64,000 bases of DNA, taken from positions 832,001-896,000 of the forward strand of contig OZ220691.1 in the NCBI GenBank assembly GCA_965116475.1, given 5' to 3'. The translations under genes and the position numbers were made by a program. This DNA is from Gemmatimonadota bacterium. GTDB taxonomy: Bacteria > Gemmatimonadota > Gemmatimonadetes > Palauibacterales > Palauibacteraceae. Below, in pieces: positions 29,576 through 29,907 of the stretch (positions are counted from its first letter, which is position 1; each line of letters begins with the position of its first letter). A model generated the notes under the pieces. That model was not told the DNA's origin, did not search any database, and saw nothing but the letters and a program-made list of their open reading frames with translations.

Positions 29576-29614
29576 ACTCAGCCCCTGGCCACCCGAAGGT
29601 GTCAGGGGCTGAGC
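29576..29614 (-). terminator. Long GC-rich hairpin, likely RNA 3' end
   Basis: GCTCAGCCCCTG-a-CACC-TTCG-GGTG-gc-CAGGGGCTGAGT; no classical U-tract follows. Confidence 0.5.
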
Positions 29615-29873
29615 AAGGAAGCTTGTTTACGGCCAACTACCGCCCGGTCCTGGTAGCTTGCGCGGTCTTCCAGAACCTCTCCGCGAGCCTGGTACCGTCT
29701 GTCCGACCAGCTGTGCTCGATCCCTCTTCCCTCGGTCGCCTCGTTCCGTCGCCGGAACTCCGCTTCCTCAGGCCCGGGACTCGCGCCCCGGTTTCGCGAT
29801 CTCGCGTCGGGCAACTCGCGGTGCGGTCATCGGCCTCGACCTCCGGTCGGTCGGTGCCGCCTCCCTTAGCACG
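29576..29873 (-). ncRNA. Unassigned structured ncRNA candidate (~300 nt)
   Basis: Own strong promoter, several hairpins with purine-rich loops, a long-range helix, and a terminal hairpin with a cUUCGg tetraloop. Confidence 0.6.
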
Positions 29874-29878
29874 CCCTG

Positions 29879-29907
29879 ATTCTAAAAAGATTTTTTTGGG
29901 TCGTCAA
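29879..29907 (-). promoter_or_regulatory. Near-consensus sigma70 promoter
   Basis: TTGACG-17 nt-TAGAAT with A/T tracts in the spacer and upstream (29930-29942). Confidence 0.8.

Follow-up and report, generated by a model that had tools for sequence, protein, structure and literature searches.

Bacterial RNAs of large size and intricate fold are rare, and those classes whose function has been solved revealed unexpected biochemistry or regulation. The orphan RNAs raiA and OLE and the ROOL-type RNAs, all known solely through comparative genomics, have a complex multi-helix fold with peripheral hairpins capped by GNRA or UUCG loops, invariant internal loops and possible long-range pairing between loops and strands, and each is an independent gene whose neighbours do not reveal its function. 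Here we describe an RNA that appears to resemble them in all of these respects, encoded on the minus strand of contig OZ220691.1 of a Gemmatimonadota bacterium (GenBank assembly GCA_965116475.1), within a stretch of 64,000 nucleotides (positions 832,001 to 896,000 of the contig; hereafter the window, whose own numbering is used throughout). It lies in about 800 nt of non-coding DNA that separates, on that strand, a gene for an Upf1-like superfamily 1 (SF1) helicase from dtd, a tRNA-proofreading gene. Unlike raiA, OLE and the ROOL-type RNAs, it is matched by no Rfam model and is known so far from five genomes of a small, uncultured clade of Gemmatimonadota and from one syntenic context; at about 305 nt in the window and 264-306 nt in its relatives it is also smaller than OLE, ROOL and GOLLD. 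We consider it very probable that this is a real, conserved, structured and undescribed RNA gene and, to judge from Rfam 15 and the searchable literature, it represents an undescribed structured RNA family of narrow known distribution. It comes from a poorly studied, largely uncultured phylum and combines stronger constraint than the adjacent protein genes with a stable-RNA type of promoter and membership of no family. The word new refers to the RNA family, as the mechanism may yet be of a known kind, and the fold is better defined than the function.

The relatives compared were the best 80 of 597 confirmed matches to the Dtd protein, taken with 10-kb flanks (43 of the 80 are titled Gemmatimonadota), and the homologue search covered the dtd-adjacent copies in those 80 loci; among the matches listed, the best relatives of the window's Dtd protein are in Gemmatimonadota metagenome-assembled genomes. 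By blastn and nhmmer the intergenic region matched only L001 (90% over 428 nt), L002 (69.5% over 364 nt) and L007, and a profile search added L072 (E = 1.7e-12). Of the 80 loci, exactly these four have in common a block made up of a divergently transcribed gene for a pyridoxal-phosphate-dependent decarboxylase, the helicase gene, the RNA and dtd, followed by recA, recX and alaS; the other 76 loci place dtd in a different context and therefore permit no inference about the RNA elsewhere in those genomes. In all five genomes the RNA follows the helicase gene, which ends 93-190 nt before it, while the gene content downstream of dtd differs. Extra genes lie between dtd and recA in L007 (10436-13223) and L072 (10436-14602), where the order helicase-RNA-dtd is intact.

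The BLAST match to L002 spans from the -35 hexamer of the RNA promoter to about 15 nt past the terminal hairpin. In comparisons with L001 and L002, respectively, identity is 75% and 65% at the helicase 3' end, 95% (289 of 305 columns) and 66% in the RNA, 39% (over the next 236 columns) and 30% in the spacer that follows, and 81% and 66% in the dtd coding sequence; the spacer, 230-429 nt from the RNA to dtd, varies in length and is unalignable. By these segment identities the RNA is at least as constrained as the flanking proteins and has sharp edges: it evolves more slowly than the adjacent protein genes, and conservation ends abruptly a few bases past the terminal hairpin. The original prediction of an orphan RNA at this place, an earlier reading of the same DNA, implied that the RNA should recur upstream of dtd in related genomes, and it does so, together with its promoter, in four other Gemmatimonadota genomes. 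No paralogue was found in the window by nhmmer, no hairpin resembling the terminal one (P6) was found elsewhere in the loci, and plasmid and phage collections gave no match; the RNA is not mobile.

The minus-strand transcript folds to -151.9 kcal/mol, a stability that none of 100 shuffles reached (z = -4.2), compared to z = -1.8 for the plus strand, in agreement with the earlier claim of a structured transcript. Two subgroups folded separately by RNAalifold (the window, L001 and L002; L007 and L072) gave the same P2, P3, P4, He, P5 and P6, and the helix coordinates (Table 1) were fixed by hand for each sequence because MAFFT misplaces P2, P3, P4 and He of L007 and L072. The resulting architecture is branched, with two 5' hairpins (P1 and P2), a three-way junction of Hc, the P3-P4 stack and P5, and a separate 3' hairpin (P6). 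The CCGGA loop motif of P2 is present in four of the five sequences. Hc pairs at 12 of 13 positions in the window and L001, retains 7 pairs with 2 double changes in L002 and is weak in L007 and L072. Four of eight positions are changed on both sides in P3; P4 (6-7 bp in all five) has two double-change positions and, in the window, one C.A mismatch. L007 and L072 lack the extra hairpins P4a and Hd, which the covariance model described below skips there. All six pair positions of He are changed on both sides, as are five of seven in P5, whose loop of 16-17 nt contains an invariant GCGCA. The lower stem of P6 is almost invariant and its tip covaries, with UUCG or GCAA loops, and two G.U wobbles in P6 of L007 fit the minus strand only. 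Among the unpaired parts, the bulge sequence GGTACCAG is invariant in all five copies, and the GCAU of the 3' tail is able to pair with the 5' GUGC in four of five, in competition with P1. Pairing of 5-7 bp between the P1 loop and the pyrimidine strand is possible in all five, with one double change from G:C to A:U; we propose it tentatively, as the purine-rich interior offers other partners.

Table 1. Features of the RNA locus in window coordinates, with RNA numbering in brackets.
Feature	Position	Strand	Remarks
Sigma-70-type promoter	29879..29907	minus	-35 TTGACG (29907-29902), 17-nt spacer, -10 TAGAAT (29884-29879)
A/T-rich tract, UP-element-like	29926..29946	minus	A-run invariant in the four-sequence alignment, also in L072
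Conserved RNA	29570..29874	minus	RNA position p is 29875 minus p; predicted start 29874-29872, predicted 3' end about 29570
P1, 5'-terminal hairpin	29854..29872 (RNA 3-21)	minus	GGGAGG loop; paired in 5/5; fifth pair U:G, C:G or U:A
P2 hairpin	29837..29853 (RNA 22-38)	minus	Loop GACCGGA; paired in 5/5; 3/5 pair positions double-changed
Hc, 5' strand	29823..29835 (RNA 40-52)	minus	Pairs with 29631-29643 (RNA 232-244); closes the three-way junction
P3, 5' strand	29813..29821 (RNA 54-62)	minus	Pairs with 29681-29689 (RNA 186-194); 8-9 bp in 5/5
P4, 5' strand	29806..29812 (RNA 63-69)	minus	Pairs with 29701-29707 (RNA 168-174); stacked on P3
Extra hairpins P4a (RNA 70-79) and Hd (RNA 84-101)	29774..29805	minus	Window, L001 and L002 only
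He hairpin, GUUCCG-GCGA-CGGAAC	29743..29758 (RNA 117-132)	minus	In 5/5; GNRA loop (4) or UUCG loop (1)
Conserved unpaired CACAGCUG	29708..29715	minus	Just 5' of the P4 3' strand; identical in 4/5, CACCGCGG in L072
Bulge between the P4 and P3 3' strands	29690..29700	minus	11 nt here, 11-13 nt overall; ends in GGUACCA
P5 hairpin	29646..29677 (RNA 198-229)	minus	6-8 bp in 5/5; 16-nt loop containing GCGCAA
Pyrimidine strand GCUUCCU	29616..29622 (RNA 253-259)	minus	Proposed partner is the P1 loop (29859-29865)
P6, terminal hairpin	29577..29613 (RNA 262-298)	minus	11-13 bp in 5/5; UUCG-capped tip
Conserved 3' tail UGCAUC	29570..29576	minus	After P6; GGGGCTGAGTGCATC identical in window, L001, L002 and L007; one change in L072
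Upf1-like SF1 helicase gene	32003-30000	minus	Pfam AAA_11 and AAA_12
dtd	29139-28705	minus	TIGR00256, 167 bits

The helices of the RNA covary. In the hand-aligned table, 58 positions pair in at least four of the five sequences, of which 27 are invariant, 4 show one-sided changes and 27 show double changes, with a single non-canonical cell; He and P5 carry most of this signal. Because the hand-chosen helices had been picked to pair, we tested the fold independently with a covariance model that covers the core from P3 to P5 (176 positions) and was built from the window, L001 and L002 only. This model found L007 (40.7 bits, E = 2.8e-7) and L072 (36.7 bits, E = 2.7e-6), placing P3, P4 and P5 as expected, and nothing in the other 76 loci (best 17 bits, E = 0.16). 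When the five core sequences were aligned to the model, 94.2% of cells paired and 11 pairs were double-changed, compared to 25-48% and 0-4 with the partners slid by 1-3 columns, and none of 500 column shuffles reached the observed values. Coming from five related sequences, the covariation counts as support for the fold rather than as proof of it.

Eight helix elements had been proposed for the transcript from the single sequence, and when checked against the four homologues four of them hold, three are ambiguous and one is rejected. The GTGC/GCAC helix, the GTTCCG-GCGA-CGGAAC hairpin (present in all five copies) and the terminal hairpin with its cUUCGg tip are supported, and so is the CGACC/GGTCG helix, for which the relatives favour a register with a loop of 7-10 nt over the one with the 3-nt GGA loop. 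The composite helix CGAGC..CTGGT/ACCAG..GCTCG had to be given up: only 12 of 25 cells pair in its CGAGC/GCTCG part, and in CTGGT/ACCAG (22 of 25) three substitutions each break a pair uncompensated; both were rejected also because their bases belong to the covarying P3 and P4 and to the bulge. Less clear-cut are CGCGG/CCGCG, which joins the P3 3' strand to the 5' half of the P5 loop and is pair-compatible in 22 of 25 cells with one double change from G:C to U:A, but competes with better-supported helices, and GCTACC/GGTAGT, which joins the 3' half of the P5 loop to the strand after P5 and forms 4 bp with two double changes in L002 and 3 bp in L007 and L072, but rivals Hc. The long-range AGGAAGC/GCTTCCT helix pairs in 19 of 21 cells in the longer copies, but L007, in our reading, has no complementary strand, whereas the alternative partner of GCTTCCT, the GGGAGGC loop of the 5' hairpin, is available in all five. 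These complementary unpaired stretches could reflect a second conformer, loop-strand pseudoknots or a by-product of the CGCG-rich sequence.

A near-consensus sigma-70 promoter at 29907-29879, of the form TTGACG-N17-TAGAAT, had been singled out as the strongest in the window, and it is indeed the best-scoring one: four sites with at least 9 of 12 hexamer matches occur in the 64 kb, and the RNA promoter leads with 10 of 12, tied with 11608-11581. Between 27000 and 33000 it is the sole promoter-like site, compared to 0.2 expected from shuffles. Its spacer is 76% A+T, and the A/T tract that precedes the -35 hexamer may act as an UP element. The window, L001, L002 and L007 share TTGAC and TAG.AT without variation, and L072 has TTGACC-N17-TATGAT; the promoter is thus kept in all five sequences, together with the A/T-rich spacer and the upstream A-tract. 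The other 10-of-12 site (11581-11608, minus strand), TTGACA-N16-GATAGT, lies directly before the prs - L25 - pth operon, and this suggests that what the consensus scan finds in this genome are genuine promoters of genes related to translation. From its promoter, the RNA would be expected to be highly expressed.

Less conventional is the 3' end. No U-run follows the terminal hairpin, as P6 gives way to UGCAUCUACCC, and a terminator scan of 27000-33000 reported no site at P6, so the RNA does not belong with small RNAs (sRNAs) that end in an intrinsic terminator. Because of the lack of a U-tract, we suggest that the 3' end at P6 is formed by Rho-type termination or trimming. The first 100 nt past P6 (29470-29569 in the window, and the same interval in L001, L002 and L072) contain more C than G, with C/G ratios of 1.18-1.28 versus 0.75-0.86 within the RNA; L007 is the exception and is A/T-rich there. 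Such a C-rich stretch is a possible Rho loading region and would fit, if weakly, Rho-dependent termination followed by trimming.

Comparison with known coding and RNA signatures leaves the locus without a family. G+C by codon phase is at most 0.78 in every phase from 29200 to 29900, compared to 0.85-0.97 in one phase for the flanking genes, and the five open reading frames (ORFs) that overlap the region contain no Pfam family, as expected from the earlier remark that it holds no credible long ORF. Substitutions between the window and L002 are spread over the three phases as 35/22/39, with gap runs of 2, 1, 1, 1 and 3 nt. Rfam 15 (4227 models) was applied at gathering thresholds to the whole window, where only a tRNA passes, and at E <= 10 to the window copy, L002, L007 and L072. 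These permissive scans returned nine chance-level hits to nine families, none common to two copies: two on the plus strand of the window copy and seven across L007, L072 and L002 (E = 1.7-7.7). No Rfam family therefore covers the RNA at threshold in the scanned copies, and the statement that it has no tmRNA, RNase P, signal recognition particle, T-box or cobalamin-riboswitch signature is upheld by Rfam and by ARAGORN, which found no tmRNA in the window and only tRNA-Gln (14862-14932). Full-text literature searches, including one on Gemmatimonas small RNA, gave, among the papers listed, no publication on an RNA of this kind in Gemmatimonadota. Conserved in sequence and fold yet matching no described family, the RNA probably represents a new class, and conservation, covariation and the empty Rfam scans together vindicate the proposal of a structured, apparently undescribed non-coding RNA behind a strong promoter.

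What this RNA does is less certain. The best explanation overall, to which we give about an even chance, is an independent gene for a conserved, structured, stable, trans-acting non-coding RNA. Transcription would start exactly at the foot of P1 and the 3' end would be formed at P6 by Rho-type termination or trimming, the two terminal hairpins rendering the RNA stable and abundant. The folded RNA could then act in trans as a platform to which a protein or a second RNA binds. Its invariant unpaired elements would form the working surface, namely the GGUACCA-bearing bulge where P3 and P4 stack, the CACAGCUG strand, the P5 loop of 16-17 nt and the 3' tail, while the GGAGG of the P1 loop might pair with the CCUCC-like strand by the terminal hairpin and so tie the ends of the RNA together. 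We regard a scaffold that binds a protein or an RNA in trans, as opposed to an element working in cis, as a plausible proposition that falls somewhat short of an even chance.

Several points weigh against this explanation. The start, the end and the abundance of the RNA are all predictions, and the partner protein of the proposed scaffold is hypothetical. Only five sequences are available, of which the window and L001 are nearly the same, and a known range of five genomes among the loci examined limits both the statistics and the immediate impact. The hand alignment was chosen for pairing helices and the core alignment was fitted to the model, so that both lean towards structure. There is no U-tract terminator behind P6 and the consensus scan shows no promoter-like site between the RNA and dtd; therefore, dtd may be served by read-through from the RNA promoter. 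The loop of P5 is complementary to the strands on either side of P5, as is the 3' tail to the P1 5' strand; such complementarities may point to a conformational switch, a feature more characteristic of cis regulators. Finally, all five copies lie in one syntenic context, and a cis role for the dtd operon is therefore inseparable from a role in trans.

A cis role is the main rival, although we consider it unlikely: the RNA would be a leader, or derived from the 5' untranslated region, of an operon of dtd, a SLOG-domain gene and recA that is driven by the strong promoter, serving as a two-fold sensor or attenuator that decides on read-through past P6. It lies on the dtd strand and always upstream of dtd, no other promoter-like consensus site exists in 27000-33000, P6 is without a U-tract, and the alternative pairings CGCGG/CCGCG (22 of 25 cells) and GCUACC/GGUAGU (4 bp in L002, with 2 double changes) are conserved. 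These pairings, however, leave P6 out, and in our own reading of the alignments no conserved antiterminator against P6 exists, nor any conserved alternative pairing that involves it. Against a cis leader there is also the unconserved spacer of 230-429 nt, variable in length, before dtd (39% and 30% identity), and a separate conserved A/T-rich region with repeats stands immediately upstream of dtd. Moreover, in size and branching the RNA exceeds known riboswitch aptamers, and it has no Rfam cis-regulatory hit. The dtd-proximal region holds an A/T tract (a T-run, C and an A-run) at 29200-29345 on the minus strand, with equivalents in L001, L002, L007 and L072, that resembles the tract before the RNA promoter; repeats of the words TGTGGA/CGTGGA come after it, and L002, L007 and L072 carry, 60-130 nt before dtd, an inverted repeat TCCAC-N5-6-GTGGA. 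This region may be the own promoter and operator of the dtd-recA operon; a sigma-70 consensus site was not detected in it.

Among cis regulators the T-box offers a likeness. Its bulge motif reads UGGN followed by ACC, and the bulge sequence UGGUACC of L007 and L072 presumably equals that motif, with CGGUACC in the window, L001 and L002; the tRNA-related genes dtd and alaS lie downstream of the RNA. Unlike in the T-box, however, the bulge sits on the 3' strand of stacked helices, so that the topology is mirrored, and it measures 11-13 nt instead of 7; no conserved terminator/antiterminator alternative involves it, and 230-429 nt separate the RNA from the next gene. No T-box was hit at E <= 10 in the four scanned copies, nor was one found at four Firmicutes dtd loci scanned.

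A base-pairing riboregulator is a weaker alternative, and a rather improbable one. CU-rich seeds aimed at ribosome-binding sites are a common sRNA mechanism, and here an anti-Shine-Dalgarno-like CCUCC strand would target the ribosome-binding sites of mRNAs, masked at rest by the GGAGG of the P1 loop; a CU-rich strand and a complementary GGAGG loop are indeed found in all five copies. Yet the strand varies (GCUUCCU, CCUCC, UCUCCU) and is not among the most conserved elements, which are GGUACCA, CACAGCUG, the GCGCA loop and the tail, and a multi-branched core of about 300 nt far exceeds the need of a seed carrier.

We also doubt that the RNA is a functional analogue of 6S or Ms1, that is, an abundant RNA that binds RNA polymerase. 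It shares with them a strong housekeeping-type promoter, like that of stable RNAs, and stable terminal structures; Ms1, at about 300 nt, is of similar size, and full-text searches found no paper linking 6S RNA to Gemmatimonadetes or Gemmatimonas. The covariation-backed fold, however, is a three-way junction with side hairpins and not the 6S rod with a central bubble, and neither 6S nor any other Rfam family was hit beyond chance at E <= 10 in the four copies, which disfavours the divergent 6S-like RNA put forward in the original prediction. An RNA-polymerase-binding RNA of Actinobacteria, Ms1 is partly defined by conserved synteny with a HAD-IB hydrolase gene (PMC9130861). The RNA described here is from Gemmatimonadota, has the helicase gene and dtd as neighbours, and shows no HAD hydrolase among the scanned ORFs of the window, and thus lacks the synteny of Ms1.

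An equally doubtful reading would make the RNA a partner or substrate of the Upf1-like helicase encoded upstream. By its core the helicase matches the RNA-acting proteins Upf1/NAM7, IGHMBP2 and Sen1, and the helicase gene keeps its place before the RNA in all five genomes, while the genes past dtd vary. Against this stands the RNA's own promoter, and the adjacency proves nothing because the whole decarboxylase-helicase-RNA-dtd block is syntenic.

More of a long shot is a new large RNA that toggles between two global folds and, tied in trans to dtd or the helicase, reads the 3' end of another RNA through its YGGUACCA bulge, with the NCCA end of tRNA as the candidate. The idea arises from the complementarities of the P5 loop and the tail and from the T-box-like bulge in L007 and L072; the bulge of the T-box and the L15 loop of RNase P both read the NCCA end of tRNA. 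Just as well, however, these short alternative helices may simply result from a G+C-rich sequence that contains CGCG.

A sponge that titrates CsrA/RsmA is very unlikely. Like CsrB and RsmZ the RNA is purine-rich, with 8-12 GGA per copy, 3-7 of them outside modelled helices and some in the loops of P1, P2 and P5, and a PrrB_RsmZ hit was obtained in one copy, L007, at chance level (10.2 bits versus a gathering threshold of 44, E = 5.5). The earlier count of 11 GGA in the window copy was correct, but no enrichment goes with it: dinucleotide shuffles give 11.5 +/- 2.4, and for the five copies shuffle means are 8.1-11.5 and 77 to 404 of 500 shuffles reach the observed count, so that GGA is at composition level in each and the proposed sponge function finds no support. 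Each copy has 0-5 occurrences of ANGGA, none of the invariant blocks is a GGA motif, and there are no repeated hairpin units as in those sponges (none was reported by general scans, no repeat-finder having been run on the RNA). No csrA was found among the 38 Pfam-scanned ORFs of the window, which at 64 kb says little on the whole genome.

That the conservation instead reflects a plus-strand protein gene, the 124-residue ORF at 29572-29946, is exceedingly unlikely, for although no stop codon interrupts the antisense strand over the element in any of the five copies and gene callers predict proteins there in three close relatives, the region lacks the third-codon-position G+C (GC3) signature of the genome, the ORF is without a Pfam family and without homologues beyond those of 85-94% identity, indels shift its frame, substitutions are not concentrated in one codon phase and are explained by the paired-site double changes, and the ORF would run through the conserved promoter. 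An antisense strand without stops is expected, because that strand is pyrimidine-rich. The spurious ORF has three near-identical hits (85-94% identical, without Pfam family) among 5.8 billion proteins, and equivalent antisense ORFs of 175-199 residues are called as proteins in three clusters from close relatives. As gene callers put ORFs over the RNA, its locus is masked by hypothetical proteins in public annotation, a practical warning that spurious proteins called in close relatives hide such an RNA. On the RNA strand itself, a 20-codon ORF at 29768-29830 (RNA 45-107) starts with an AUG 9 nt past a Shine-Dalgarno-like GGAGG in the window and L001 only; it is probably meaningless, because L002 has AAG at the position of its start codon.

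The surroundings of the RNA are those of an ordinary core chromosome (71% G+C in the window), with rsfS, L9, a H+-pyrophosphatase gene, pth, L25, prs and tRNA-Gln elsewhere in the window. The helicase was correctly recognised as Upf1-like, as Pfam and solved relatives attest: its closest solved relatives are Upf1/NAM7, Dna2, IGHMBP2 and Sen1, and with the IGHMBP2-family model it reaches 142 bits, short of the cut-off of 349. Its N-terminal residues, about 170, match no family. The helicase core aligns solely to the helicase half, at the C-terminus, of MkoA, a Mokosh defence protein (PADLOC), and the gene neighbourhood is conserved housekeeping and not a defence island. On the minus strand, dtd is followed by a SLOG/TIGR00725 gene, a small zinc-ribbon-like gene, recA, recX and alaS. 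The longest ORF of the SLOG/TIGR00725 gene (28187-29011, minus strand) overlaps dtd by about 300 nt, and because the family match begins at residue 108, the true start of this gene is probably near 28700, just past the dtd stop.

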